The notes beneath the pieces were generated by a model. That model saw only the letters and a list, made by a program, of their open reading frames with translations, did no database searches and was not told the origin of the DNA. From Candidatus Saccharimonadota bacterium (GTDB taxonomy: Bacteria > Patescibacteriota > Saccharimonadia > Saccharimonadales > Saccharimonadaceae): DNA of 32,000 nucleotides. The translations under genes were made by a program, and so were the position numbers. Positions 1,733 to 26,210 of the stretch are shown piece by piece. The stretch is from contig CP060232.1 of assembly GCA_023898645.1 (NCBI GenBank), positions 630,001 through 662,000 on the forward strand, read 5' to 3'. Numbering within the stretch: the first letter of the stretch is position 1; every line of letters starts with the position of its first letter.

Positions 1733-1756
1733 ATATTACCAAATCAGATCAAGCTA

Positions 1757-1785
1757 TTGCTTATTTTATTATTTCGTGCTATAAT
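1757..1785 (+). promoter_or_regulatory. Sigma70-like promoter of the DGR target gene (TTGCTT-17 nt-TGcTATAAT)
   Basis: The -35 ttgctt is at 1757-1762 and the -10 tataat is at 1780-1785, with an exact 17-nt spacer and an upstream TG (extended -10). It would give a ~140-nt leader containing an 11-bp stem (1821-1831 / 1857-1867, one G.U pair). Confidence 0.55.
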
Positions 1786-1933
1786 AGTCATCGAACCTTA
1801 ACAGTTTAGCACTCCCTACTGAGAGCGGCGTTTTATATACAAATCTTGCATGTAATACGCCGTTCTCAATCGACAGTTGAGATCACCGCTGCAAGTCGCA
1901 TCGGAGAAGTCTACGGCAAGGAAGAGGGTCATC

Positions 1934-2647
1934 ATGACCACCATCGAGCAGTTGGCCGGTATCACCGCTCAGCACAACGAGATCGTCAAGCGTGTCGGCA
2001 ACGGCTCGCTCGACCCCGCCGCCGTCAAGCGGGCACTCCAGGACATCATCGAGGGCAAGCTGCCCACGCTGACCTGGAACCCGCCCACCTGGTGGCGTAC
2101 CCCCGAGCAGCAGCTCGAGCGTGCTCGCCAGCTCTGGCCGAACGCCGTTCTGCCCGAGCCGCCCAAGGAGTTCACGCCCCGGACGAAGTCCGAGGTGCTG
2201 CTGCTCCACGTGCCGGACATGTTCGACTCCCTCTGGGACAAGGTCGTCGCCCCCACGGACTACACCAAGTACCGGTGGGAGGGTGTCAAGTCTGACAAGC
2301 GGAACCTGCGTCTCTCGCCGAACAAGCGTGAGTACACGGAGCCCGTCTGGTTGGCTTTCGACCCCGAGCGCGGTAAGGGTGAGCGTCCCGACTCCTTCTG
2401 GGGTCAGGCCGACACCGCTGCCAGCGAGGTCTTCTCGGCGCTGATCCAGTTCCCTGAGTGGTCACTCGCGTGGTTCAACGGTGCTTCGGCTCCGAACCTC
2501 TCGGGCTACCAGCTCAAGTACGACGGGAACTGGTCGAACGTTCCGTCCCTCCACCGGTGGGACGTCGACCGCCAGCTGCGGCTGTGCGACCGCTGGGCTG
2601 CCCACCGGCTTGCCCACTGGTCGTCTCCGTCGGTCAGGGAGTGCTGA
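1934..2647 (+). CDS. DGR variable (target) protein, 237 aa, no recognisable N-terminal signal peptide or TM; the C-terminal ~37 codons are the VR
   Basis: The ATG at 1934 is preceded by ggaagaggg (SD-like). The ORF-track TTG at 1877 is less likely. The gene is strongly GC3-biased: 36 of its first 40 codons end in G/C. The VR occupies the 3' end, as in known DGR targets. The C-terminus reads NWSNVPSLHRWDVDRQLRLCDRWAAHRLAHWSSPSVREC. Confidence 0.85.
   Translation: MTTIEQLAGITAQHNEIVKRVGNGSLDPAAVKRALQDIIEGKLPTLTWNPPTWWRTPEQQLERARQLWPNAVLPEPPKEFTPRTKSEVLLLHVPDMFDSLWDKVVAPTDYTKYRWEGVKSDKRNLRLSPNKREYTEPVWLAFDPERGKGERPDSFWGQADTAASEVFSALIQFPEWSLAWFNGASAPNLSGYQLKYDGNWSNVPSLHRWDVDRQLRLCDRWAAHRLAHWSSPSVREC
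2529..2640 (+). repeat. DGR variable region (VR)
   Basis: Aligns without gaps to 3023-3134 at a constant offset of 494 nt. It differs from TR at 15 positions, and all 15 are adenines in TR. The invariant GC-rich 3' block tggtcgtctccgtcggtcaggga is IMH-like. Confidence 0.9.
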
Positions 2648-2651
2648 CACT

Positions 2652-2665
2652 GGAACCTTGGTTCC
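2652..2665 (+). other. Perfect palindrome ggaacc-tt-ggttcc 5 nt after the target stop codon (candidate DGR target-site hairpin/cruciform)
   Basis: Read directly from the sequence: ggaacc at 2652-2657 and ggttcc at 2660-2665. Confidence 0.5.
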
Positions 2666-2668
2666 TTG

Positions 2669-2731
2669 GTATCCGGAGGGGTTTGGTTTCTTGGATCTTG
2701 ATCCTTGAAAACTTTTTACCTCTCCGGATAC
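2669..2731 (+). other. 10-bp inverted repeat gtatccggag / ctccggatac enclosing ~43 nt, in the target 3' UTR
   Basis: The arms are at 2669-2678 and 2722-2731 and are perfectly complementary. Confidence 0.5.
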
Positions 2732-2765
2732 CTGCACTCACTTTTGAATTTGTCCCTTAACCGTT

Positions 2766-2797
2766 CCTCTGCTTTAGCAGAGGCGTTTTTAATTTTT
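2766..2797 (+). terminator. Rho-independent terminator of the target gene
   Basis: The stem cctctgc (2766-2772) pairs with gcagagg (2777-2783) around a ttta loop, followed by cgtttttaattttt. Confidence 0.7.
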
Positions 2798-3022
2798 GCT
2801 AAAATAGGAAGTGAATTGGTTACTGAACGTATGTTCACGGATATGCGTCACTGATTCCGTGTTTTGAAACTGACAGAATTACCTTATTTACGGATCAGGT
2901 AAGCGTGCAGGCAGAATATCGAGCACTCCGTGCAATCCGCTTGAGATATGTATCTCGTATAAAATACAGGGTTTGGATGCGTCTGGACCCGGTGGCACCG
3001 GATGGTGGATCGCGCTATACCG

Positions 3023-3134
3023 ACTGGTCGAACGTTCCGTACCTCAACCGGTGGGACGACGACCGCCAGCTGAAGCTGAACGACAACTGGGCTGACAACC
3101 GGAATGACAACTGGTCGTCTCCGTCGGTCAGGGA
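3023..3134 (+). repeat. DGR template region (TR)
   Basis: This is the A-rich counterpart of the VR, with 27 adenines. It has 7 AAY codons in the VR reading frame (3031, 3046, 3079, 3085, 3097, 3103, 3109), and 6 of them are changed in VR. The ORF-track ORF 2905..3144 merely reflects the frame inherited from VR. Confidence 0.9.
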
Positions 3135-3418
3135 CTGCTCGTGATGGATTTCAGCCAGCCTCCCAGCATGCGTCCAATTTCACTACAAGTGGAATCGAGC
3201 TGCTGGTAGGCCTGGTTAGAAACGCATTTACAGTCTTTACACAAATTGAGGAGCAAGCGGAGGCTATCGAGTCGTACGGATGCTTCGTTTATGTAAGCGG
3301 CCTTATCTGACGGTTTAGTACTACTAGCAGCCCGCAGTGATAGCCGCAGGAGTTCAAGTATTTCGCTCTGACACGTCGCGCCGAGACTGTAGCGCTCTGA
3401 TTTTGGAAATGCAATCAA
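3128..3418 (-). CDS. avd: Avd-like accessory variability determinant (four-helix-bundle protein), encoded antisense to TR and RT
   Basis: Contains FPKSERYSLG...LRAA (a four-helix-bundle / 23S-IVS-protein-like motif) and a C-terminal EIGRMLGGWLKS resembling BPP-1 bAvd ...EVGRILGSWIARV (from memory). The ORF-track start is a TTG at 3418. The Avd-like helix-1 sequence (VYHLYESFHEC) continues upstream with no ATG/GTG/TTG, so the true start is unresolved. The stop codon and last codons overlap the TR 3' end (3128-3134). Confidence 0.75.
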   Translation of the reverse strand: MIAFPKSERYSLGATCQSEILELLRLSLRAASSTKPSDKAAYINEASVRLDSLRLLLNLCKDCKCVSNQAYQQLDSTCSEIGRMLGGWLKSITSSP

Positions 3419-3461
3419 ACATTCATGAAAGGATTCGTATAGGTGGTAGACGCTACTGACA

Positions 3462-4562
<1,101 letters not shown>

Positions 4563-4588
4563 AAATACGACTCAGGTATAATAAGGAC

Positions 4589-4987
4589 ATGAATGTTTAT
4601 CTGGACATTGACGGTGTATTGCTAGCCAACGAGAGTAACGCGGCTAACTATGCAGATGAGTTTCTACAGGCTGTACTAGCAACATATCCCGATTCTACCT
4701 ATTGGCTGACTACACACAATTGGAGAGGCGAAAACAGGACTAAAGAAGTGCTCGCACCACACCTCAGACCGGAAACCGTGCCACTACTGGATAAAATTAA
4801 GCCGTCCGTCTGGAATGAAATGAAGACGGACGGAATAAACTTCTCTGAGAAGTTTATATGGCTCGATGATGACTTATGGCAGGATGAGCTAAAGGTACTT
4901 GAGCGACACAATGCCACCGATAACTTTATCTTAATAGACCTTCAGAAAAACCCAAACCAACTAAAAGATATAGCCGAGATTATTTAG
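4589..4987 (+). CDS. HAD-superfamily-like small protein (DxDGV motif)
   Basis: Begins MNVYLDIDGVLL (HAD motif I, DxD) and later has FIWLDDD (an acidic motif IV-like sequence). It starts 27 nt after the RT stop on the same strand. Confidence 0.45.
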   Translation: MNVYLDIDGVLLANESNAANYADEFLQAVLATYPDSTYWLTTHNWRGENRTKEVLAPHLRPETVPLLDKIKPSVWNEMKTDGINFSEKFIWLDDDLWQDELKVLERHNATDNFILIDLQKNPNQLKDIAEII

Positions 4988-5489
4988 TCTTTTTATGATC
5001 TTTTAGGTAGTCGCGCATTACCGCAAAGACCATGAGTCTCTTACGAGCACCAGCACCACGTGGTTTTACGATAATTGCATAGAGCGCTAAAACGCCTAAA
5101 GCTATAAGCACGCCTCCAATGTAGTAGTACCAATTTGACCAAAATAGGACTGCCGGTAACAGTGTGATAGGCAAAACACGAACTAAGATTACTCGCACTA
5201 ACGTGTCGTAATATTTCCTGAATCGCTTATACGCTGAGGGGCGAGCCGACTGGTGTATGCGCAGATAATCTGCGTAGTCTTTCACGGCTATTGTTTCCGT
5301 GTACTTCAGATGCTCGTAAACCGATTCTTGCTCAGTATTATCATACAATCCGTAGAAGCTATCTTTTGACCTAAAGAATGCATAGTGAAGTACAACAAGG
5401 ATCCAATCGATAGCCTGTGAAAAATGTAGGTACGCAAGACCAAACAAAACTCCGGCACTTAACGCTAGATATTCCATACTATCTATCAT
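4980..5489 (-). CDS. Hypothetical integral membrane protein
   Basis: Has several hydrophobic helices (ALSAGVLFGLAYL, LLPAVLFWSNWYYYIGGVLIALGVLALYAIIV). Its start abuts the stop of the upstream PLD-like gene, so the two are probably an operon. Confidence 0.55.
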   Translation of the reverse strand: MIDSMEYLALSAGVLFGLAYLHFSQAIDWILVVLHYAFFRSKDSFYGLYDNTEQESVYEHLKYTETIAVKDYADYLRIHQSARPSAYKRFRKYYDTLVRVILVRVLPITLLPAVLFWSNWYYYIGGVLIALGVLALYAIIVKPRGAGARKRLMVFAVMRDYLKDHKKTK

Positions 5490-5490
5490 A

Positions 5491-5937
5491 TCATTTATAC
5501 CATTTTTCCAGTTTTATGAAGCGTAGCATCTCTTGTACTGACGAAGCATCGTCTATGCGACGCATTAACTCACAGCTATCATTTTGAGATAGTATGTTCA
5601 AACTACCTTCGTAGAGGATATCATCGATGATAGCTAGTTTCCTGTGATGGCCGATCGTCATTAGGACAGTAACTCCCATACTCTGCATCATTTCGATAGC
5701 CTTGATCACTTGATCTTGATACTGCGGATCATGCTCCTCAATAGGTTTCGTATTCACGATAACCTCAACGCCGCGCTTTTTAAGTTTTGCAAAGACGACA
5801 AGCAAGGATATAGAACGACGCTGAGTAATGAACGGACTTTCTATAACTACACGATGTCTTGCACTCCGAAGGTCTTTGTAAAACCTGTCATAAAATGTAG
5901 ACTGATTGTAGAGTGAAGATGATGATAGCCTAAACAT
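5491..5937 (-). CDS. Phospholipase D-family (HKD motif) protein, Nuc-like nuclease/phosphodiesterase
   Basis: The HKD motif is GHHRKLAIIDD (HxKxxxxD). I moved the start to the ATG at 5937-5935, which is preceded by aggagg (5943-5948) with a 5-nt spacer. The longer ORF-track N-terminus reads through a hairpin-rich region and is probably not coding. Confidence 0.7.
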   Translation of the reverse strand: MFRLSSSSLYNQSTFYDRFYKDLRSARHRVVIESPFITQRRSISLLVVFAKLKKRGVEVIVNTKPIEEHDPQYQDQVIKAIEMMQSMGVTVLMTIGHHRKLAIIDDILYEGSLNILSQNDSCELMRRIDDASSVQEMLRFIKLEKWYK

Positions 5938-5998
5938 TTTTACCTCCTGAAATAGCGTTTTCGCTAACAGAGTAAAAAGTTCTATCTTCATCCATGTA

Positions 5999-6204
5999 CC
6001 CCTGCCAAGAAGAGAAGCCAGCCTAGTGCTGGCTCTTCTTCTTGGCAATCGAGCATGAGGATCGAACCTCAGTCGCGGCTGCTTTAGCAGGCGCAAGATT
6101 GAGATACGCGTACTGTCAAATCTTTGATTTGCACAGTACCTAGCGGATGTTCCTCGCTAGCATAGCGAGGACATCCAAGCGTCGGACTCATGCCCCTGCC
6201 AAGA
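5999..6204 (-). other. Highly structured intergenic element: four near-perfect hairpins plus a tRNA T-arm-like hairpin, bounded by 12-bp direct repeats. Candidate ncRNA or insertion remnant.
   Basis: The direct repeat cccctgccaaga is at 5999-6010 and 6193-6204. A second direct repeat caagattgaga is at 6094-6104 and 6200-6210. Hairpins lie at 6005-6045 (18 paired positions, 1 mismatch, 1 G.U), 6074-6094, 6110-6139 and 6145-6176. On the minus strand, 6056-6071 reads tgagg-ttcgat-cctca. The strand assignment is tentative. Confidence 0.4.
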
Positions 6205-9282: not shown

Positions 9283-10240
9283 GAGCCACCGCCTTTACGT
9301 TTTTATTCAACCTTAGACTTCGGCCGAATTTTACGTTTTTTCCATCATAAGTTTGTAGAAGCGCAGCCCTTACATTTCGTGACTTCAAAAAAGGCACTGC
9401 TTTTTCGCTACCCAAAATTACCGCGCATGATGCCAGTACGTCCGCATCTATGCCCTTATCGCAATAAACCGACGCCACCCGGACATCAGACATCGATGGC
9501 CGTTCCGTGCGCGGGTCAATGATATGATGCCAGTCTTTTGTGTCGGTACTAGTTCCGCGCCGTACGTTCGTATCAGAAGTCGCAACAGCAAACGTATCAA
9601 AATTAATCGGCTGGAATATAAAAGGACTGAGATTATCTAATGTGGAACTATCCGCGATACGCACCGTCCATGGCTTTCTATTCTCATCATGACCGCCCGC
9701 CACGATATCCCCACCTAATGAAAACCAAAAACCGACAACTTCGTCAGGCAAACATGCCGCGAGCTGATCCGCAAGATACCCCTTGCCGCAACCGCCCATG
9801 TCAATCGATGTGCCGTAAGGAATCTTCGCCCATTCATCGCCAACTTCAAAATTATCAACTGACACAACAAGTCTATTTGAATAATCGTCTTGGACATCAT
9901 TTTCATGCCCAGGCATAAATGATTTCGTGTAACCAGCGCGTTGCAGAGCAGGCAAGATAAACGGATTGTATAAGCCCCCTGTTACTTCAGTCATACTTTT
10001 TGCAGCCAGTAGCAGCTCACGAAATGCTGGGCTAATGTGACGCCTACGGCCACCAGTCCGATTAAACAAAGACAGTTCGCTTTCTGGAATAAAGCGGCTA
10101 AACTGACGCTCAAACCGAAACGCAATGCCCCAAAGAATCTCCAGCAGTTGCTCAGCTACTGCATCAGGCATATCCGAAACAATCATCAAAGTAACGTCAG
10201 AGCCTACAACCCGCTTCGTCTGAAAATGCTGCTTTAACAT
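9275..10240 (-). CDS. apbE: FAD:protein FMN transferase (ApbE family)
   Basis: Carries MGGCGKGYLADQLA and WHHIIDPRTERPS, which are ApbE signatures. I preferred the ATG at 10240-10238, which overlaps the upstream TAA; the ORF-track start is 10270. No obvious signal peptide. Confidence 0.75.
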   Translation of the reverse strand: MLKQHFQTKRVVGSDVTLMIVSDMPDAVAEQLLEILWGIAFRFERQFSRFIPESELSLFNRTGGRRRHISPAFRELLLAAKSMTEVTGGLYNPFILPALQRAGYTKSFMPGHENDVQDDYSNRLVVSVDNFEVGDEWAKIPYGTSIDMGGCGKGYLADQLAACLPDEVVGFWFSLGGDIVAGGHDENRKPWTVRIADSSTLDNLSPFIFQPINFDTFAVATSDTNVRRGTSTDTKDWHHIIDPRTERPSMSDVRVASVYCDKGIDADVLASCAVILGSEKAVPFLKSRNVRAALLQTYDGKNVKFGRSLRLNKNVKAVAHA

Positions 10241-18917: not shown

Positions 18918-19343
18918 ATGGCCAAGAAAATTATTGGTAATCTAAAACTTCGCATCCCAGCTGGTCGCGCAACCGCAGGTCCTCCTGTTGGTAGCACGCT
19001 CGGTCAATGGGGCCTAAACATGATGGATTTCATCAATCCTTTTAATGACGCCACTAAAGGCGACATGGGTAAAGATGTTATCGTTCACATTCAGGTTTTC
19101 GAAGATCGCACATTCGCATGGAAGAGCCTCGGTCAGCCTGTAGACGACGCAATCCGCGCCGCTATCGGCATCCAAAAGGGTAGCGCCAAGCCGCATGCCG
19201 AAAAAGTCGGTAAGATTACTCGTGCACAGCTCGAAGAAATCGCCAAGGCAAAGATGGACCAGTTGAACGCAATCGACCTCGATGGCGCAGTCAAAACCAT
19301 CGCCGGAACCGCACGCAGCATGGGCGTCGAAATAGCCGACTAA
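18918..19343 (+). CDS. rplK: 50S ribosomal protein L11
   Basis: Begins MAKKIIGNLKLRIPAGRATAGPPVGSTLGQ... and has typical uL11 sequence over its full length. Confidence 0.95.
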   Translation: MAKKIIGNLKLRIPAGRATAGPPVGSTLGQWGLNMMDFINPFNDATKGDMGKDVIVHIQVFEDRTFAWKSLGQPVDDAIRAAIGIQKGSAKPHAEKVGKITRAQLEEIAKAKMDQLNAIDLDGAVKTIAGTARSMGVEIAD

Positions 19344-19371
19344 TATTGCAAAATTTGCAAATATAATGTAA

Positions 19372-19399
19372 AATACTCCTCAAATAAGAGGAGTATTTT
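19372..19399 (+). terminator. Hairpin after rplK (weak terminator) that sequesters the next gene's SD sequence
   Basis: A 10-bp stem aatactcctc / gaggagtatt with loop aaataa, followed only by ttc. The 3' arm contains the gaggag RBS of the GTG at 19401. Confidence 0.45.
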
Positions 19400-19400
19400 C

Positions 19401-19961
19401 GTGAGCATAGAAAACAACGACCACTTCAAACTCTGGGAATCGTCCTTTGACGCCCTCGAACTACCGGAAATGCCCAAAGATCCACTTGACGCAATCGTTG
19501 ACTACACAGCCGATCCAGTAGAATGCGCAAAAGAAATCCATAAATACTTGTATAAAAATCCGGAGGACGCACATTCATCGCTCATGCGACGCGGCCTTGC
19601 TAAATTAGCTTACAAATACTACGGACAATACCACGGGAAACAACTTGCAGTAGTGGCGGACGAAGCATTTGCTGTACCTGAAACCGACAAAACACATCGA
19701 AAGCGTGAAATACTTCAAACGTCACAATATTCAGGCACCATCTTTGCTCGTGGCAACATGGCGACTTTCCGAACAATTGACTTTCGTGATGGAGAAACAG
19801 GCGTTGAAAGCACCCTTATAACTTTATGCCTATCTGAGCCATATCTCATTAATGCAAATGGCGATATAAATACCGACCACGAGCTACCCGACTACCTGCT
19901 ACTCCCCATACAAAAAGTGCAGGAATACAAATTCAAACCAGACGAAATAGCAAATAGCTAG
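19401..19961 (+). CDS. Hypothetical protein (186 aa), paralogue A
   Basis: GTG start with a gaggag SD. The N-terminus MSIENNDHFKLWESS resembles that of the next ORF. Confidence 0.55.
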   Translation: MSIENNDHFKLWESSFDALELPEMPKDPLDAIVDYTADPVECAKEIHKYLYKNPEDAHSSLMRRGLAKLAYKYYGQYHGKQLAVVADEAFAVPETDKTHRKREILQTSQYSGTIFARGNMATFRTIDFRDGETGVESTLITLCLSEPYLINANGDINTDHELPDYLLLPIQKVQEYKFKPDEIANS

Positions 19962-20030
19962 ACTGGTTCAATAGGGCAGGTGCTTGCCTATAGTTGCAGC
20001 GAGGATTATCATAAAAAAAAGGAGTACGCT

Positions 20031-20510
20031 ATGTCAGAATCAGATTTCAGCCTATGGGAAAAGGAACAGTCAGCTGGAGACAAAGAACTAAAAGTCATTC
20101 AGCATACACTCGACTTAGCACAGGAGCTCCAACTAAACCTCGTCAATCAGCCGCCCGACTTCCGTAAAGACATGGGGATCGAGGCACTCAAACTGCTTAA
20201 CGGCCACCCGAACAATCTAAAACATCGCGACTTTGCGGTACATGTCCAGCACGCATACCTTCACTTGCGCCCAAAAGCACCCGAAGATCCAGCCCACACT
20301 CTACACTACGGAGAAATGCGACTCATAGGCAGAATCGGATATTACGTGCTCCAAGGGCTTTCAGACGCTGACTACATTCTATCCCTGCAGCTTTTCGACC
20401 CAAAACAACTGGAATGTCGTAACATAGAGGACAAAATATCTGCTCGTCTGCCCGAACCGTTGTCGCTTCCCGTAGCAGCATTCATCGATCCGCCCATTCT
20501 TATCAAGTAG
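20031..20510 (+). CDS. Hypothetical protein (159 aa), paralogue B
   Basis: I chose the ATG at 20031, which is preceded by aaggag. The N-terminus MSESDFSLWEKE is similar to that of paralogue A. Confidence 0.55.
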   Translation: MSESDFSLWEKEQSAGDKELKVIQHTLDLAQELQLNLVNQPPDFRKDMGIEALKLLNGHPNNLKHRDFAVHVQHAYLHLRPKAPEDPAHTLHYGEMRLIGRIGYYVLQGLSDADYILSLQLFDPKQLECRNIEDKISARLPEPLSLPVAAFIDPPILIK

Positions 20511-20552
20511 CACAGCCAACGGGCCCCGCGCATTTGGATGCACGAGCCGACT

Positions 20553-22211
20553 CTAGAAGTGATCGCGAATATGCGAGAAGCTATAATCCCACTTGGCGTT
20601 CGCCTTTTTGTGCGGATTAAAGATATGTAGCGGGTCGAAGATGTTTTTAGTGTCACGGAAAAGTTGCATTATTTCCTTGCCATACATCTGTTCCAACCAA
20701 GGGCCACGCACTAGTCCGTCATTATGTTCGCCGCTGAGTGACCCTTTATATTTCAGTACCAGCGTATTAACTTCCTTCATAGCAGGCAAAATCTTCTTGC
20801 GGTCTTTTGGATCCTCAAGTTTCATAAGTGGAATGATATGGAAGTTACCGTCGCCCATGTGCCCAGCGATAGTAGCGAACAACTTATATTTCTTTATAAT
20901 ACGGCGTATCTTAGGCAAAAACTCTGACAAATATTCAGGGTTTACAACCAAATCGTCAATAAATGGAGCCGTGTGCTTGTCGCGCACCTTGCTGCGAAGT
21001 AGCTGGAAGCTTCGGCGACGCATAATCCAAAACTTCTCACTCGAACCTTCCGTAGGGTCTTCTTCAAAACCATTGATTTCATATCGTGCCTTTAGGTGCG
21101 ACAAATCTTTGTGTAGTTGACGCACTTTATGTCGAACTTCTTCTTCAGTGTTGCCATTAAACTCGACCATGAGGATGAGCTTTGGTATACCGTGCAGAAG
21201 CTGCAGCCCATCAGGAATCAAACTAAGGAGCAGGTGAATGAATTTAACTGGACCGAGCATTTTCAGGAAACTCGGCATAAACTTTATACTAAGCCAAAGA
21301 GTTTGGTCATCAAAGCTCTCAAACGTAGCTGGTTTATGTTCGAGCACCTTTGGTATCAGTTCTCCCAACTCATCAATATCTTTCATAAATAACACCAGCA
21401 GGCCTGAGTGCTTTTGACGCGGAACCAACTGCAACGTCGCTTCAGTCACAAACCCAAGCGTACCTTGTGCGCCAATGATAGCTTGCGTTAGGTCAAACAC
21501 GCCAGTTTCTCGGTCCCATACATTCCACAAATTGTAGCCGGTTGAGTTTTTGCTCACGTTTGGTTTGGCTGCCTTGATCTTGTCGTAGTTTTTTTCGATC
21601 AGTTCGTAGAGATCTTTATAAACTTTACCCTCGAAATCTTTTTGCTTCATCTTGGCATCGAGTTCACTCTTATTAAGCGGCTTAACGACTCGCTCTACGC
21701 CGTCAGCAAACACAAACTTCATGTGTGGCACATACTTTTCTGTCTTGCCAAATTCCAGCGACTTTTCGCCACCAGAGTTGTTGTTGACCATACCGCCAAC
21801 CGAGCATAAATCACGGCTAGCAGGGTAGGAAGGCAGAAGAAAATCACCGGTCTTTTTGTCAAAATCGCGGAAGAAAATTCCAGGCTGAGTTGTTGCTTTG
21901 TCATGTTTTTGATCGATAAATTTGTTGAGATGCCTTTGAAAGTCAACGATGATCGATTCATTTATGGCAGCGCCAGACATGTCGGTACCGGCACTACGAG
22001 CCGTCAGCGACAGGTGAGGATCGTGTGCTTTGCGTTCCGCGACAATTTTGACCGCAGCTTCAACGTCTTTACTTGTTTTAGGAGCAATGACTAGTTTTGG
22101 TACAACCTCGAACATACTAGCGTCGTGCGAATATGCGTCGAGCGTGGCAGGGGCGTCATCGACATCACCCTTAAAGCCACTTTGAGCAAGTGCTTGTTTG
22201 ATTTCTTCCAT
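20553..22211 (-). CDS. FAD-linked oxidase (GlcD / FAD_binding_4 family)
   Basis: The length, the N-terminal FAD-binding region (LTARSAGTDMSGAAI) and the C-terminal GSLSGEHNDGLVR are typical of the FAD-linked oxidase family. A -10-like tatgat lies only ~7 nt upstream of the ATG. Confidence 0.75.
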   Translation of the reverse strand: MEEIKQALAQSGFKGDVDDAPATLDAYSHDASMFEVVPKLVIAPKTSKDVEAAVKIVAERKAHDPHLSLTARSAGTDMSGAAINESIIVDFQRHLNKFIDQKHDKATTQPGIFFRDFDKKTGDFLLPSYPASRDLCSVGGMVNNNSGGEKSLEFGKTEKYVPHMKFVFADGVERVVKPLNKSELDAKMKQKDFEGKVYKDLYELIEKNYDKIKAAKPNVSKNSTGYNLWNVWDRETGVFDLTQAIIGAQGTLGFVTEATLQLVPRQKHSGLLVLFMKDIDELGELIPKVLEHKPATFESFDDQTLWLSIKFMPSFLKMLGPVKFIHLLLSLIPDGLQLLHGIPKLILMVEFNGNTEEEVRHKVRQLHKDLSHLKARYEINGFEEDPTEGSSEKFWIMRRRSFQLLRSKVRDKHTAPFIDDLVVNPEYLSEFLPKIRRIIKKYKLFATIAGHMGDGNFHIIPLMKLEDPKDRKKILPAMKEVNTLVLKYKGSLSGEHNDGLVRGPWLEQMYGKEIMQLFRDTKNIFDPLHIFNPHKKANAKWDYSFSHIRDHF

Positions 22212-22256
22212 AAGTCAATCATAGCATAAGCGTCACAATCATAATGCCCAGATATG

Positions 22257-22278
22257 AAAAAACACCCCCGAAGGGGTG
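22257..22278 (-). terminator. Rho-independent terminator (unit A)
   Basis: On the minus strand: cacccc-ttcg-ggggtg followed by tttttt. Confidence 0.75.
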
Positions 22279-22298
22279 TGGAATAAGTGAAATTGGGC

Positions 22299-22337
22299 GG
22301 ATTCCCCGGCGTGCCGAAACGGCACACCGGGGAATCC
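22299..22337 (-). repeat. Long GC hairpin (unit A 3' UTR), 18-bp stem with one mismatch
   Basis: The sequence is ggattccccggcgtgccg-aaa-cggcacaccggggaatcc. Confidence 0.8.
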
Positions 22338-22378
22338 TATCCTGTCACGGCGGTCTTCGGTGGACGTTTCGTCCGGAT

Positions 22379-22606
22379 TTAATCGGCAGAGTCGAAGGCG
22401 ATGCCGTTCAAACTCAGACGCTCTGCTAGCTTCGAATTGAATCGAGGCTCCAGCAGGATATTCAGGATAACCATACGCGCAAGCTCGTCCTTCAGACGAA
22501 TGAAGTCACTCTCGGTCATGCTAGCGGGCTCTTCCTCAATGGTATCGAGGGCGGCACCGATTCTATCGATTGCGGCCGAAATTGGCGTACGTCGTTGGTC
22601 GGTCAT
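22379..22606 (-). CDS. Hypothetical small acidic protein (75 aa)
   Basis: The ATG is preceded by gaaaggacgg. The gene has its own promoter and terminator. No family recognised. Confidence 0.55.
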   Translation of the reverse strand: MTDQRRTPISAAIDRIGAALDTIEEEPASMTESDFIRLKDELARMVILNILLEPRFNSKLAERLSLNGIAFDSAD

Positions 22607-22708
22607 GAACCGTCCTTTCGTAGTATCTCCACATTTTCACTCATCTAAAAGTTCGTTCGCAGCCAGAACAGATAAAATATCTGATTCCGAACGACGAAAC
22701 TGCTAGCT

Positions 22709-22737
22709 ACTATAGCATAATCGCCAAGTCTGGTCAA
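22709..22737 (-). promoter_or_regulatory. Promoter, minus strand: TTGACC-17 nt-TGcTATAGT
   Basis: On the + strand, ggtcaa is at 22732-22737 and actata at 22709-22714, with an exact 17-nt spacer. Confidence 0.65.
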
Positions 22738-22744
22738 TCGGCAT

Positions 22745-22766
22745 AAAAAATCCGCCATAAGGCGGA
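22745..22766 (-). terminator. Rho-independent terminator (unit C)
   Basis: On the minus strand: tccgcc-ttat-ggcgga followed by tttttt. It lies 7 nt before the next -35. Confidence 0.75.
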
Positions 22767-22799
22767 AAAGTATGACAGTGGAAGCATAAAGCGGGTGGC

Positions 22800-22832
22800 G
22801 TCCCGGTGCGGTCTCATGACTCGCACCGGGAC
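22800..22832 (-). repeat. Long GC hairpin (unit C 3' UTR), 11-bp stem
   Basis: The stem is gtcccggtgcg / cgcaccgggac with an 11-nt loop. Confidence 0.8.
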
Positions 22833-22843
22833 ACCCAGCTAGC

Positions 22844-22993
22844 TCAGACGAAATCGTCGTCGCTGACGTAGGTGATGTCGTTGAGCTTGCTGACCCAGCT
22901 GAGGTCGTCAGAATCCAGAACGACAGCCTTCTTGATCGAGAACTTCGTACCCGGAAACAGTTCGAGCTGTTCCGGAGCGTCGCTATTGGGCAT
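22844..22993 (-). CDS. Candidate small acidic protein (49 aa): MPNSDAPEQLELFPGTKFSIKKAVVLDSDDLSWVSKLNDITYVSDDDFV
   Basis: Below the ORF-track cutoff. The ATG is preceded by gaaagggg. It lies between a consensus promoter and a terminator. The overlapping 141-aa track ORF (22645..23070) is low-complexity and spans the promoter and terminator. Confidence 0.5.
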   Translation of the reverse strand: MPNSDAPEQLELFPGTKFSIKKAVVLDSDDLSWVSKLNDITYVSDDDFV

Positions 22994-23095
22994 GATAGCC
23001 CCTTTCTGGTTGAGTTGCTTCCACTGTCAAATGTCGATTTCGCCCGACACTGACAATGAAATGATTTCACGTCCGTCTTTGACGAAACTGCCAGA

Positions 23096-23124
23096 ATTAT
23101 AGCATAAGTTCATTGAAAAGTCAA
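23096..23124 (-). promoter_or_regulatory. Consensus promoter, minus strand: TTGACT-17 nt-TGcTATAAT
   Basis: On the + strand, agtcaa is at 23119-23124 and attata at 23096-23101, followed by gca. The spacer is exactly 17 nt. Confidence 0.7.
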
Positions 23125-23140
23125 TTACATCAGGGTATTT

Positions 23141-23162
23141 AAAAACCACCCCGTAAGGTGGT
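23141..23162 (-). terminator. Rho-independent terminator (unit B, after the MFS gene)
   Basis: On the minus strand: accacc-ttacgg-ggtggt followed by ttttt. Confidence 0.7.
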
Positions 23163-23190
23163 TATAGACAAGTGAAAGCATGAGTTGAGC

Positions 23191-23225
23191 GGACAGTCCG
23201 GCGCGCAATGCACACCGGACTGTCC
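23191..23225 (-). repeat. Long GC hairpin (unit B 3' UTR), 11-bp stem
   Basis: The stem is ggacagtccgg / ccggactgtcc with a 13-nt loop. Confidence 0.8.
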
Positions 23226-23304
23226 TGTCGCAAAACACCCTAGGATGACTACGAATTGACTTCATTTCTTGACCGAAACAAGGAAGTGCCTTTGAGTATA
23301 GGCA

Positions 23305-24891
23305 TCAAACCATCGCCTCGACTTTCGCCATTTCGCCTGTCTTTCCATAATCTAGAGTGGTTTTGAACGGCGTTTCCCGGAGGAAAAGCAGTACAATGAA
23401 CGCCACTACAACAAGAGGTGTGATCCAGAGGAAAATTGGCGTCAACGCATCACTATACGACTCCAGGATGGCGCTTCGAACCGTGCTTGGCAACATTTTG
23501 ACGACCGCTGGAGTTAGCGAACCTTGTCCACCACTGCCAATTGACGCTCCGGGTAACCTTTCTGCAATTTGATCTTTCAAGTTTGTCACAAACAACGAAC
23601 CGATAAACGACGCGCCCAGTGCCGAACCGATTGTACGGAAATATATGTTCGTCGAATTTCCCGTACCAGACATCATGAGCGGCACTTCGTTACGCACGAT
23701 TGCCATCAGAGTCTGCATGGTCATACCCATGCCGGCTCCCATGACGCCAAGATACACACAGATGTGCCAAATCGCTGTCGTTGCCGTAAGGGTAGATAGC
23801 AGAACCAAACCAACACCCATGACTGCCATACCCGAAAGCGGCGCCCACTTATAACGCTTCGTGCGAGTGATGATGATATTGACTGTATTTGAGACTACTA
23901 GCATGCCACCCACTAGCGGCAGCATGTAAACACCCGACATCGTCGCACTAGTGCCCGTTGCCATCTGAAGATACGTTGGCAAATACGCCAACGTCCCCAT
24001 CATCACGACACCCAGCACAAGACCCGCTACCGTCACTAACGAAAAGTTACGGTTCTTGAACAAAAAAAGTGGCATGACAGGATCTTCTACCAGCCTGCGT
24101 TCAACAATAACGAACAGGATAGCACTTACAACTGCGCTAACAATCAACCAAATGATTGCCGGCGAGCCCCATGCGTACTTCGACCCGCCCCAGGTTGTCG
24201 CGAGAACTATTGAAGTCGACGCTAAACTCAGCAGGATGATCCCGTACGTATCGAATTTCGGCCGAACCTTTGGCACTGGCAGCTTTGGCACGAATGCCAC
24301 AATAGCGGCTAACGCGAGCGCGCCAACCGGCAGATTTAACCAAAATACCCATCGCCAGTTCGTCATAACACCAAAAATATGCGTGTCATGAACCGTAGAC
24401 AAAAAGCCTCCGATAAGCGGACCGACGACGAACGAAACGCCGAATGTCAGACCAAAAAGCGGCGTATACTTTCTCATTTTGTCTGGTGGAGCAATGTGGC
24501 TCATTACCGCCATAGCAAGTACCATCAGACTACCGCCACCGAGACCCTGGACGAACCGCCCAATAATCAGCAGCGTCATGTTCGTTGCTAGCGCACTCAT
24601 TGTTGACCCGACCAAAAACACCAGGACTGCAGTGATAAACATGCGCTTATGACCAAACAAGTCGCCTAGTTTTCCGCATATGGGCAGCACAACGGCCGAA
24701 GCCAACATATATGCCGTTATTACTAGCGACATACTCTCAACGCCATTCAAATCACCGACAATCGTCGGCAATGCGGCTCCAGCTACTGTTTGATCGAGCA
24801 CGCCAAGAAACATCCCGGCGATAAGACCAAACAAAACTGTGAGAATCGCCCGATGGCTCAAACCCACCGATACATCTTGAGAATTGCTCAT
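23305..24891 (-). CDS. MFS transporter, 14-TMS DHA2 (EmrB/QacA-like) drug:H+ antiporter family
   Basis: At 528 aa it has about 14 hydrophobic helices and the motif-A-like GKLGDLFGHKRMF. The SD sequence is agagagg. Confidence 0.8.
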   Translation of the reverse strand: MSNSQDVSVGLSHRAILTVLFGLIAGMFLGVLDQTVAGAALPTIVGDLNGVESMSLVITAYMLASAVVLPICGKLGDLFGHKRMFITAVLVFLVGSTMSALATNMTLLIIGRFVQGLGGGSLMVLAMAVMSHIAPPDKMRKYTPLFGLTFGVSFVVGPLIGGFLSTVHDTHIFGVMTNWRWVFWLNLPVGALALAAIVAFVPKLPVPKVRPKFDTYGIILLSLASTSIVLATTWGGSKYAWGSPAIIWLIVSAVVSAILFVIVERRLVEDPVMPLFLFKNRNFSLVTVAGLVLGVVMMGTLAYLPTYLQMATGTSATMSGVYMLPLVGGMLVVSNTVNIIITRTKRYKWAPLSGMAVMGVGLVLLSTLTATTAIWHICVYLGVMGAGMGMTMQTLMAIVRNEVPLMMSGTGNSTNIYFRTIGSALGASFIGSLFVTNLKDQIAERLPGASIGSGGQGSLTPAVVKMLPSTVRSAILESYSDALTPIFLWITPLVVVAFIVLLFLRETPFKTTLDYGKTGEMAKVEAMV

Positions 24892-24993
24892 TGTCGCAAC
24901 CTCTCTGCTTTGCTTTCACTTGTCAAAGGGCTTCATCGCCCCGACATATGAAAAAACCAATTTCCACACTCGCCGGGTGACGAAGATGGCATA

Positions 24994-25022
24994 ACTATAC
25001 TTTTTATTGCATTATAGGTCAA
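24994..25022 (-). promoter_or_regulatory. Promoter of the MFS unit, minus strand: TTGACC-17 nt-TATAGT
   Basis: On the + strand, ggtcaa is at 25017-25022 and actata at 24994-24999, with a 17-nt spacer. Confidence 0.6.
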
Positions 25023-25028
25023 TGAGTC

Positions 25029-25057
25029 TAGACATTTTACCTCTGTTTTGCTATGAT
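25029..25057 (+). promoter_or_regulatory. Promoter for rplA (TAGACA-17 nt-TGcTATGAT), divergent from the MFS promoter
   Basis: The -35 is at 25029-25034 and the -10 at 25052-25057 with an upstream TG. The leader contains a ggtag-caaaa-ctacc hairpin. Confidence 0.5.
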
Positions 25058-25125
25058 TAGTCCATACAAATCAATGTTGGGAGGTAGCAAAACTACCGCT
25101 TGCACCACAGAAAGGGTTTACACCT

Positions 25126-26136
25126 ATGGCTAAAAAAGCCGAACTATTAGAAAAGGCTGCCGAGCTCAAACTCGAAGTCACCGAAAAAAACACAATCGCC
25201 GAGATCGAAGCTGCCATCAATACAGTAGATGCTCCAGTGGTTGAAAAGGTCGAAGAAGTCGTAGCTGAAGAAGTAGTAGCCGACAAGCCAGCCGCAAAAG
25301 CCGGCAAGCGCAGTGAAAAAGCTCAAAAAGAAGTAGCTGAAAAGCTAGAAAAAGAAGCTCGCAAAGAATCTGGCGACACAACACCTCAGTCTGAAGACGC
25401 CGAAGCTCACGTTAAAAAGGGCAAAGCACCTATTATCCGCTCACGCCTCGAACGCCGTGGCAAAAATTACCGCAAGGTAGCTGAACTAGTTGAAAAGGGC
25501 AAAGTTTACAGTCTTCAGGACGCGCTAGAACTAGCAACCAAAACCAACCCAACCAAATTCGACGCTAGCGTTGAATTGCACGTACGCCTAGGCGTTGACC
25601 CTCGTCAGGCCGACCAAAACATTCGTGCGACTGTCAGCCTGCCACACGGTACCGGCAAGACCGTCCGTGTAGCAGTATTTGCACCTGAATCTGAACATGC
25701 CGCAGCCAAAAAAGCTGGCGCAGACGTCGTAGGTGACGACGACTTCCTAAAGCAACTAGAAAAGGAAGAACTTAACTTCGACATCCTCGTTTCAACTCCT
25801 CAGTACATGCCAAAACTTGGTAAGTACGCACGATTGCTTGGCCCACGCGGTCTTATGCCAAACCCTAAGAGTGGCACCGTGTCAGCAAACGTCGGCAAAG
25901 CCGTCGAAGAAGCAAAAGCCGGTCGTGTTGAATACCGCGTCGACAAGCAAGCTATTGTTCACATCGGCATCGGCAAGGTAAGCTTTGGTACTGAAAAGCT
26001 AGTACAAAACGCCACTGCCTTTGTAGACAGCCTGAAGTCTCAAAAACCAAGCAGCCTTAAGGGTAGCTACGTTAAATCAACCAGCGTTACTACAACTATG
26101 GGTCCTGGCATCAAGGTTGATGCTGGTATCAACTAG
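25126..26136 (+). CDS. rplA: 50S ribosomal protein L1 with a ~105-aa Lys/Glu/Ala-rich N-terminal extension
   Basis: The canonical uL1 core starts at about residue 110 ([34 protein letters not shown]..., [15 protein letters not shown]). The extension has no alternative internal start. Confidence 0.9.
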
Positions 26137-26148
26137 TTAATTGTAAAA

Positions 26149-26186
26149 CAATCAAAAATAGCCCGCTATAGGGCTATTTTTGATTG
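26149..26186. terminator. Strong bidirectional-type hairpin terminator after rplA
   Basis: A perfect 16-bp stem caatcaaaaatagccc / gggctatttttgattg with a 6-nt loop. The stem itself contains the U-run. Confidence 0.75.
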
Positions 26187-26210
26187 TAGAAATATGTTGT
26201 ATATACAACT

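Follow-up and report, generated by a model that had tools for sequence, protein, structure and literature searches.

Why should three adjacent, unrelated genes share one layout, in which each leader carries a segment complementary to its own trailer? In the window (the whole 32-kb stretch of DNA that was analyzed), this layout is found on the minus strand in an MFS gene (U1), a 49-aa ORF (U2) and a 75-aa ORF (U3); the scope is this one island of a 1.13-Mb genome. Each unit begins with a promoter and a 5'-terminal hairpin, followed by 5' box, Shine-Dalgarno sequence (SD) and CDS, and then by GC hairpin, 3' box and terminator (Table 1). All the elements of the scaffold described in the initial annotation were recovered, at the same positions or within a few bases. 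The leaders start as reported there, with aTCTTCGTC in U1 and AGTTTCGTC in both U2 and U3, and the three promoters stand, except that 25017, previously given as the first coordinate of the U1 promoter, is the end of the -35 hexamer. The 5' hairpins begin 1-3 nt from the inferred TSS, and the GC hairpins have z-scores of -7.5 to -8.7. Rfam gave no match at gathering thresholds in the window, and only weak ones, with E-values of at least 0.3, within 22200-25150.

Table 1. Features of the three units, by position in the window
Feature	Position	Strand	Details
U1 promoter	24994..25022	-	TTGACC, 17 nt, TATAGT; inferred TSS ~24987
U1 5'-terminal hairpin	24931..24985	-	CUUCGUCACCCGG...UCGGGGCGAUGAAG; dG -25.5, z -5.7
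U1 5' box	24911..24924	-	GACAAGUGAAAGCA; pairing with 3' box, covariation
U1 CDS	23305..24891	-	528-aa MFS (EmrB/QacA-type) transporter
U1 GC hairpin	23191..23225	-	16 bp; 2 G.U exist only in minus sense
U1 3' box	23167..23180	-	UGCUUUCACUUGUC; 14/14 with 24924-24911
U1 intrinsic terminator	23141..23162	-	ACCACCUUACGGGGUGGUUUUU; read directly, missed by terminator scanner
U2 promoter	23096..23124	-	TTGACT, 17 nt, TGcTATAAT; inferred TSS ~23089
U2 5'-terminal hairpin	23036..23088	-	dG -17.4, z -4.1
U2 5' box	23016..23029	-	UGACAGUGGAAGCA; 0/300 shuffles reach pairing score
U2 CDS	22844..22993	-	49-aa acidic protein, motif D-L-S-W-x3-L-N-D-I-T-Y conserved
U2 GC hairpin	22793..22836	-	dG -35.6, z -7.5
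U2 3' box	22773..22786	-	UGCUUCCACUGUCA; 14/14 with 23029-23016
U2 terminator	22745..22766	-	terminator scan (22766-22751)
U3 promoter	22709..22737	-	TTGACC, 17 nt, TGcTATAGT; inferred TSS ~22702
U3 5'-terminal hairpin	22650..22701	-	dG -17.6, z -3.3
U3 5' box	22635..22645	-	GAUGAGUGAAA; whole-transcript fold and pairing score
U3 CDS	22379..22606	-	75-aa protein; homologues in L011 (59 aa), L093 (83 aa)
U3 trailer element, 27 nt	22330..22356	-	AGACCGCCGUGACAGGAUAGGAUUCCC; runs into GC hairpin
U3 GC hairpin	22299..22337	-	dG -37.6, z -8.3
U3 3' box	22282..22292	-	UUUCACUUAUU; 11 bp incl. 2 G.U with 22645-22635
U3 terminator	22257..22279	-	terminator scan (22279-22262)

In all three units, one box is placed after the promoter and before the SD, the other after the stop codon and before the terminator. 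The perfect 14/14 matches noted earlier for U1 and U2 were reproduced; for U3 the complementarity is real, but the 10 bp with one G.U given before became 11 bp with two G.U on recounting. The U1 and U2 pairs occupy equivalent positions in their units and are the sole perfect 14-mer inverted repeats no more than 4 kb apart in the 32-kb window, where by our own estimate about 0.5 would be expected by chance. When U2 and U3 are folded as complete transcripts, the minimum free energy (MFE) structures have the boxes paired, and cognate 5'/3' box pairs reach a mean score of 29.7, as against 22.0 for non-cognate pairs.

Syntenic loci were found in about 11 related lineages, in which the MFS protein is 51-76% identical, and these provided further copies of the scaffold with covarying boxes. 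For the U1-type helix, 81% of the cells in nine sequences were paired, compared to 34-40% with the partner columns slid; both sides had changed at nine pairs, and covariation was 0.275 vs 0.150, with none of 500 shuffles as high. Among the U2 orthologues, one and the same pair appears as C-G, U-A and A-U. Boxes of unrelated sequence that are nevertheless complementary occur in U1 of L180 (10/11) and in U3 of L093 (9+4 bp) and L190 (7+5 bp), while the single operon that U2 and U3 form in L011 has its U2-type leader box paired to its U3-type trailer box over 12 bp plus one G.U. The proposal that complementarity itself is selected is borne out by the compensatory substitutions in the U1 and U2 helices, and maintenance of the helix by selection through compensatory change is, on these comparisons, well supported. 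Since the helix is missing (U1 of L185; U2 of L091 and L180) or interrupted by a 2x2 or 4x1 internal loop (L181, L186, L190, L182) in some orthologous units, it is not indispensable.

Other parts of the scaffold are also conserved. The spacer of the U1 promoter, CAATA(A/C)AAAGTATAGT, is kept in L011, L091, L093, L095 and L182, and the basal and middle stems of the U1 5' hairpin are 93% paired across nine lineages. At the place of the U1 GC hairpin, L011, L091, L093 and L095 have a hairpin of different sequence. The 27-nt trailer element of U3 is identical in L011, and its core AGAC..GUGACAGG is also present in L093 and, by reading, in L181, L186 and L190. Homologues of the U2 protein were read in L011, L091, L093, L180 and L181, and a switch of a Ser codon between AGC and TCG shows selection at the protein level.

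The 5' box is conserved as YUUUGACA, more than pairing requires, which may point to a further partner, be it a protein or another fold. Its invariant TTTGACA could also be expected if a DNA-binding regulator used the boxes as operators, or if they were a dispersed repeat with no pairing function. Independent operators, however, would not change in step, boxes of unrelated sequence still match their partner (L180, and U3 of L093), and the motif has no other occurrence in the window. The covariation in relatives and the higher cognate scores largely refute this explanation, which we find barely credible.

A different DNA-level explanation, raised in the initial annotation, is that the boxes are inverted repeats serving inversion or cassette exchange, or relics of the terminal repeats of a transposable element. 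Each CDS is indeed flanked by inverted repeats, and the number and content of the small-ORF units in the island vary between lineages. Against this, all contigs, which come from about 12 lineages and many samples, agree in orientation; genes for a recombinase or transposase are absent from the 10 kb on either side; the repeat ends exactly at the box, while promoter and 5' hairpin, which lie outside it, are co-conserved; and the compensatory changes arose in situ, with G.U tolerated in the mRNA sense only. In the helix core, read on the sense strand, there are 11 G.U as against 4 A.C. The mRNA sense is also the more stable by 3-7 kcal/mol for all three GC hairpins (for U1, dG is -31.5 in the minus sense vs -24.5 in the plus sense). 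Because of the G.U excess, the sense-stronger hairpins and the absence of any inverted contig, an RNA helix within one mRNA is favored over a DNA recombination site, and we consider the latter highly improbable. An inverton was rejected on the same grounds of orientation and recombinase content. Integron cassettes are promoterless, carry at their 3' end an attC site with R''/L''-L'/R' cores (GTTRRRY), and lie adjacent to an integrase gene. Here the units have their own promoters and terminators, the repeats flank the CDS, no integrase was found, and the GTTRRRY core was not seen on reading, so an integron cassette was rejected as well.

The mRNA of each unit probably folds end to end through the box helix. 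Of the three roles suggested earlier, 5'-3' end pairing of the mRNA fits best, given the G.U preference, the sense-stable hairpins and the MFE folds. Each unit, having its own promoter and terminator, would give rise to its own mRNA with predicted ends. The 5' box, which closely follows the 5'-terminal hairpin and precedes the SD by 0-17 nt, would pair, in the same RNA molecule, with the 3' box between GC hairpin and intrinsic terminator, so that a leader-trailer helix of 11-16 bp closes the mRNA. With 5' hairpin, closing helix and terminator side by side, neither end would have a free single-stranded tail, and the full-length transcript would likely be shielded from 5'-end-dependent and 3' exonucleolytic decay, as in the hbs mRNA of Bacillus subtilis. 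The small sequence differences between units may keep the pairing specific to the own transcript. We lean, with some reservation, towards this reading, in which the closing helix ties the 3' end to the protective 5' hairpin and so stabilizes the full-length mRNA; we infer its formation in vivo, its action in cis and its effect. In U1 the partners are 1.7 kb apart with translating ribosomes between them, an observation that counts against closure.

An additional effect on translation initiation is possible, since the helix abuts the SD. In the window units, it ends 5, 10 and 17 nt upstream of the SD, which is left unpaired; in U1, for example, 19 nt separate the end of the 5' box from the AUG, and about 5 nt separate it from the SD GAGAGG. 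Only in U2 of L181, L186 and L190 does the helix touch or overlap the edge of the SD.

The same pairing could in principle operate in trans, if GC hairpin, 3' box and terminator were released as a 3'-UTR-derived sRNA with the 3' box as seed for its own or sibling leaders. Two stable hairpins delimit the trailer, a module of about 90 nt, its element AGAC..GUGACAGG is better conserved than the CDS, and sequence reading shows just two differences between the U1 and U2 boxes, so that cross-pairing of 9+4 bp is possible. However, a promoter scan showed no internal promoter-like site upstream of the trailers, unit-specific matching of the boxes is what within-transcript pairing predicts, and kinetics favor the intramolecular reaction, which makes an sRNA quite improbable. 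Only a little less doubtful is an RNase III-type site for processing or decay, as in rRNA leader-trailer stems and in icaR of Staphylococcus aureus, where cleavage would remove the 5' hairpin and terminator or trigger degradation. The duplex is built from both UTRs, its neighbors are long irregular 5' hairpins and GC hairpins of 16-18 bp, and RNase III does cut the mRNA in the icaR precedent (PMC7821165). Typical substrates are longer than a helix of 11-16 bp that often contains internal loops, and the sequence does not separate such cleavage from simple stabilization.

End-to-end closure can be elaborated into a conformational switch, with two mutually exclusive leader folds. In modeled fold A the 5'-terminal hairpin is formed, leaving the 5' box available to the 3' box, while in fold B the 3' arm of the hairpin, which resembles a 3' box (UUUUCAUAUGUC at 24954-24943 in U1; UUUCAUUGUCA at 23061-23051 in U2), pairs with the 5' box and leaves the 5' end single-stranded. 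Protection of the 5' end would then depend on whether the 3' box arrives or is lost, so that the stability of a transcript would be coupled to its completion or 3' integrity, much as happens through 3' processing in hok- and aapA1-type mRNAs. Both folds are about 93% paired in the nine U1 leaders and near-isoenergetic in about half of the lineages, and covariation for fold B is 0.351 vs 0.216, with 0/500 shuffles as high, although structure B was derived by RNAalifold from the same alignment used to score it and three of the nine sequences are one clade, so independent events are few. For U2 of the window, the full transcript is predicted to adopt fold A plus the box helix, and without the 3' box fold B is the MFE and is present in all of 400 suboptimal structures; a 3' exonuclease that had removed the 3' box would stall at the GC hairpin just upstream. 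On the other hand, fold B is not predicted for U3, is inconsistent among U2 orthologues, and is disfavored by 5-13 kcal/mol in L091, L093 and L095. Fold B is supported in U1 and in U2 of the window, but not in general, and we regard the switch as possible but doubtful.

Equally tentative is the wider view of the scaffold as a modular device of four RNA elements (hairpin arms 1 and 2, 5' box and distant 3' box), attenuator-like across a whole gene. An intact 3' box would capture the 5' box and keep the protective hairpin, while truncated, prematurely terminated or 3'-trimmed transcripts would refold, expose their 5' end and be destroyed. If this is true, mRNAs would carry their own check of being full-length, with the boxes as unit-specific "addresses", and a reduced-genome episymbiont would have copied it onto unrelated genes; a real alternative leader fold would suggest a cellular way to favor intact transcripts.

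Returning to closure itself, the 5'-3' pairing of U1-U3 is probably a rarely documented form of bacterial gene control. Distinctive are the use of one design on three adjacent, unrelated genes, the divergence of paralogous leaders and trailers with each box matching only its own partner, and, in a clade of uncultured Saccharibacteria-like bacteria, support by compensatory evolution. Closure of the mRNA thereby becomes testable as a reusable, evolvable regulatory module, concrete sequences are at hand for compensatory-mutation work, and UTR architecture proves inferable in organisms without a transcriptome.

Among known systems, the leader-trailer stems of rRNA operons likewise have complementary flanks that bring the ends of a long functional RNA segment together. 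Those stems exceed the window helices in length, with about 20 bp or more, are substrates of RNase III and flank non-coding rRNA. The window helices are short (11-16 bp, some with internal loops) and surround protein-coding sequences; with no continuous helix of at least about 20 bp, an rRNA-type RNase III stem was rejected.

Long-distance 5'-3' interactions are also known in type I toxin mRNAs, namely the fbi-tac pairing of hok/sok and aapA1 of Helicobacter pylori (PMC6733600, PMC9841398). The shared traits are small ORFs (U2 and U3), compact mRNAs, a closing 5'-3' helix and, upstream of the 3' element, a stable hairpin at which 3' trimming could halt; metastable or alternative leader folds, known there, are predicted here for U1 and for U2 of the window but not in general. 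However, the toxins are small and hydrophobic, whereas the units here encode acidic, hydrophilic proteins of 49 and 75 aa and a 528-aa transporter. A hok/aapA1 mRNA is kept translationally inert by its helix, an effect with no sign of it in U1-U3, and a consensus scan for an antisense RNA promoter found no sigma-70-like site on the plus strand within U2 and U3.

A review names only three bacterial mRNAs in which the 3' UTR pairs with the own 5' UTR, RNAIII/hld, icaR and hbs, and calls the generality of the mechanism open (PMC7821165). The window units resemble S. aureus icaR and RNAIII/hld in this pairing, which there serves post-transcriptional control (PMC7821165). In icaR, the ribosome-binding site is masked by an anti-SD UCCCC motif in the 3' UTR, and the same motif gives rise to an RNase III site (PMC7821165); the window boxes lie clear of the SD, and an icaR-type anti-SD 3' UTR was rejected. 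The initial annotation knew of no described system with this architecture. That does not hold for single-gene helices (hbs, icaR, RNAIII, hok/aapA1); for a scaffold reused on tandem units, each with a pairing of its own, the literature searched yielded no description.

The closest counterpart is hbs of B. subtilis, where a 14-bp helix that joins the 5' UTR to the 3' UTR limits cleavage by RNase Y (Braun, Durand and Condon 2017, PMC5737220). Here, too, complementary segments are present in both UTRs of one unit, a long-range helix would join the UTRs of one mRNA with a highly structured leader, and a shield against endonuclease and 5'-exonuclease attack is proposed, in our case from sequence. 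In the window units, the pairing is under selection, as the covariation in relatives shows. Close relatives of B. subtilis reportedly do not conserve the hbs 3' UTR (PMC7821165). Unlike hbs, which is a single gene, the present locus has three tandem units with unit-specific boxes, covarying across about 11 lineages.

On the minus strand of 22100-25200, the sequence reads as three units in the same orientation, encoding an MFS transporter (U1), a 49-aa ORF (U2) and a 75-aa ORF (U3). The initial annotation had described this tandem layout with two 14-nt inverted repeats; the layout is confirmed, and a repeat search recovered the repeats exactly where they had been placed. Each of the three units has a near-consensus promoter (TTGACY-17 nt-TATART) and an intrinsic terminator as its 3' end. 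Taking the TSS as 7 nt past the -10 hexamer, a 52-55-nt 5' hairpin lies within 1-3 nt of the inferred TSS in each unit (dG -25.5, -17.4 and -17.6, z-scores -5.7, -4.1 and -3.3, for U1, U2 and U3). It is followed by a 3-6 nt linker, the leader segment that we call the 5' box, 5-17 nt, the SD and the CDS; beyond the CDS come a very stable GC hairpin (dG -31.5 to -37.6, z -7.5 to -8.7) and, after a gap of 6-12 nt, the complementary 3' box, 4-6 nt and the terminator. No relevant Rfam family was found for any unit element at gathering or E-value thresholds.

Coordinates of the three units, of an additional unit in related loci (U0), and of further features in the window
Feature	Position	Strand	Basis
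U1 promoter	25022-24994	-	promoter scan
U1 CDS, 528-aa MFS transporter	24891-23305	-	ORF reading
U1 5' box / 3' box	24911-24924 / 23167-23180		repeat search
U1 terminator	23162-23141	-	read directly from sequence
U2 promoter	23124-23096	-	promoter scan
U2 CDS, 49-aa ORF	22993-22844	-	ORF reading
U2 5' box / 3' box	23016-23029 / 22773-22786		repeat search
U2 terminator	22766-22751	-	terminator scanner
U3 promoter	22737-22709	-	promoter scan
U3 CDS, 75-aa ORF	22606-22379	-	ORF reading
U3 terminator	22279-22262	-	terminator scanner
U0, 79-81 aa	L181 5462-5880; L186 3452-3880; L190 3468-3880; L011 8934-		
T4SS coupling-protein-like ATPase	209-1732		
Reverse transcriptase, RVT_1	3462-4562		
HAD_SAK_2, weak match	4589-4987		
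PLD-family nuclease	5491-6096		

When the whole 32-kb window was scanned, the U1 and U2 box pairs were the sole perfect 14-mers within 4 kb; both lie at equivalent positions of their units, and by our own estimate ~0.5 such repeats would be expected by chance. The U3 boxes, GAUGAGUGAAA with UUUCACUUAUU, form 11 bp including two G.U. When the transcripts of U2 (345 nt) and U3 (447 nt) are folded in full, the MFE structures pair the boxes, and the box motif TGCTTYCACT has no further occurrence in the window.

Looking up the 49-aa and 75-aa proteins by exact match returned only contigs that were 100% identical, and so gave no comparative signal, and homologue searches with both small proteins gave self hits only. 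Homologues of the MFS protein led to syntenic loci from ~11 further lineages, and it was by reading these loci that the real homologues of both small proteins were recognised. The U1 helix was found in most of them.

MFS protein identity and U1 box helix in the syntenic loci of related lineages
Locus	MFS identity to window	U1 helix
L011	76%	15 positions, 1 G.U, 1 A.C
L091	64%	14 positions, 2 G.U, 1 mismatch
L092	64%	
L093	63%	15 bp, 1 G.U
L094	63%	
L095	56%	16/16
L180	51-53%	unrelated sequence, GAUAGAUGACA with UGUGAUCUAUC, 10/11
L181, L186, L190	51-53%	6 bp, AAxAA loop, then 6-11 bp
L182	51-53%	6 bp, 4x1 loop, then 9 bp
L185	51-53%	absent

The U1 and U2 box sets were analysed separately, since a joint MAFFT alignment misplaced a one-pair indel. 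When nine box pairs of the U1 type were aligned without gaps (A2), 81% of cells were paired, versus 34-40% when the partners were slid by 1-3 columns. Nine pairs were altered on both sides, and covariation was 0.275 versus 0.150 in shuffles, with none of 500 shuffles as high. The core of the U2 helix is invariant among six sequences (alignment A3), in which one pair occurs as C-G, U-A or A-U and the next changes from G-C to A-U; L091 and L180 are without U2 boxes. Complementarity in U3 is kept with different sequences in L093 (9+4 bp) and in L190 (7+5 bp). In L011, where U2 and U3 are fused as a single operon, a U2-type leader box pairs with a U3-type trailer box through 12 bp and one G.U, with at least three compensatory differences from the window U3 trailer. 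Cognate 5'/3' combinations had a mean score of 29.7 versus 22.0 for non-cognate ones, using an ungapped pairing score in place of RNAduplex, whose long duplexes between UTRs were spurious because structure within each strand is ignored. These comparisons strengthen the main claim of the initial annotation, that the pairing itself is under selection. The contrary outcomes it had foreseen, copies without complementarity or a simple dispersed repeat, were not borne out. We regard the pairing of 5' box and 3' box as well supported.

A 27-nt trailer element, AGACCGCCGTGACAGGATAGGATTCCC, is identical at 22330-22356 (-) and at L011 12801-12827, downstream of a CDS that has diverged (75 aa in the window versus 59 aa in L011), and its core, AGAC..GTGACAGG, recurs in L093, L181, L186 and L190. 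Within the U2 CDS, GCTCAACGACATCACCTAC at 22875-22893 (-) is nucleotide-identical in the window, L091 and L093, although the MFS proteins of the window and these two loci are only ~64% identical. Protein-level selection is shown by a Ser codon that switches between AGC and TCG close by, so that the extra nucleotide conservation would go beyond a protein-level explanation. L011 carries a tandem duplicate, 41 nt apart, of its U1 5' box region (9923-9978; CAAATGAAAGCTACTT), possibly offering two partners to one 3' box.

Inverted repeats flanking a CDS could also act as DNA. The helix cores, however, contain 11 G.U against 4 A.C, and in all three units the GC hairpin is 3-7 kcal/mol stabler as minus-sense than as plus-sense RNA, because its imperfections are G.U in the mRNA sense only. 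Co-conservation extends to the promoter and 5' hairpin, both of them outside the repeats; no inverted CDS was seen in any contig, and no recombinase within +/-10 kb. A MITE or terminal-inverted-repeat origin was rejected because the 5' module ceases to resemble the reverse-complemented 3' module exactly at the box. Taken together, these features argue for RNA, and the reading that we favour is a helix formed by the sense transcript. A terminator/antiterminator role of the 3' box was rejected on reading, because this box is not complementary to the stems of the terminators.

The units belong to an island that separates rplA from rplK, together with an FAD-linked oxidase and two unknown ORFs. 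The genes rplK (L11) and rplA (L1) are normally neighbours; here (18918-26136) they are ~5.8 kb apart, with the tandem units on the opposite strand, and the split is kept in all syntenic relatives, L181, L186, L190 and L093 among them. Across 115 kb of related DNA, a regular expression for the promoter and leader start matched 21 times, in every case inside the island and on the sense strand, and it matched nowhere else in the window. Unit content differs by lineage, with extra small-ORF units in L011, L180, L181, L182, L186 and L190. The MFS scaffold recurs in L095 beside different neighbours, so that the evolutionary module appears to be the whole transcription unit. One extra unit, U0, has a leader beginning GAAACGUCAA, a box-like GACAAUUGGAAGG that overlaps the SD, and a 3' UTR beginning with the anti-SD-like UUCUCCACC, before the GC hairpin instead of after it; its box pairing was weak and not significant by the ungapped pairing score. 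Pfam and PHROGs searches of ten small island proteins gave no domains. Among metagenome contigs, the pattern GCYCTTTGACAWNTGRAAGC had 81 matches, none of which proved related when read (they were recurring sequence families that look coding, and other unrelated contexts), and two pattern scans of viral contigs gave chance matches only. Apart from a small group of Saccharibacteria, the MFS protein has its closest relatives among Actinobacteria (Microbacteriaceae, Eggerthellaceae, Acidimicrobiia; ~40-52% identity), which suggests acquisition of the transporter from Actinobacteria, the phylum that includes known Saccharibacteria hosts.

Other features were noted in the window. The rplA gene has its own promoter (TAGACA-17 nt-TGcTATGAT; 25029-25125, +) and a leader, GGGAGGUAGCAAAACUACCGCUUGCACCACAGAAAGGG, almost unchanged in all relatives, which may be an L1 autoregulatory site, rplA being detached from rplK. 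Directly past rplA, a perfect 17-bp A/T-rich hairpin (ACAATCAAAAATAGCCC / GGGCTATTTTTGATTGT; 26148-26187, +) is probably a bidirectional terminator. The FAD-oxidase ATG (22211) is only ~7 nt past a TGcTATGAT -10 (22208-22226, -), suggesting a leaderless mRNA in the window; in L093 and L181 the gene has a longer leader with an SD instead. Genes for an ATPase, a reverse transcriptase and a nuclease at 209-6096, with the weak HAD_SAK_2 match among them, may mark a mobile or defence region.

The best explanation of function, as we infer it, is end-to-end closure of the mRNA: the box helix would act as the closing helix and bring the 5'-terminal hairpin and the terminator to lie beside it, and the full-length mRNA would thereby be stabilised. 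In the window units the SD stays free of the helix; in U2 of L181, L186 and L190 the helix abuts it. A minority hypothesis from structure prediction is a long-range switch that would tie protection of the 5' end to integrity of the 3' end, a logic like that of the hok and aapA1 mRNAs (PMC6733600). For nine U1 leaders, RNAalifold predicted a fold (B) with local pairing of the 5' box to the 5' hairpin's 3' arm, an arm that resembles the 3' box (UUUUCAUAUGUC in U1, UUUCAUUGUCA in U2). In U1 leaders this fold and the hairpin fold are each ~93% paired across lineages, the covariation of fold B exceeded all 500 shuffles, and fold B is near-isoenergetic with the fold that leaves the 5' box free (A) in about half of the lineages. 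The full window U2 transcript is predicted to form the hairpin and the box helix, and without the 3' box every structure within 3 kcal/mol adopts fold B. However, fold B was not seen for U3 and was inconsistent among U2 orthologues, and it is this mixed support across units that makes the switch the minority view beside end-to-end closure.

The nearest case on record is that of B. subtilis hbs, in which a 14-bp helix that joins the 5' UTR to the 3' UTR modulates how RNase Y cleaves a structured leader (PMC5737220). A review that describes the generality of 5'-3' UTR interactions as unknown, and the hbs 3' UTR as not conserved, lists no others than RNAIII/hld, icaR and hbs (PMC7821165). The three-unit scaffold is a variant of this already known regulation by cis 5'UTR-3'UTR pairing, with a putative function, and is unusual among such pairings in being reused as a module, in having complementarity specific to each unit and in its phylogenetic support.
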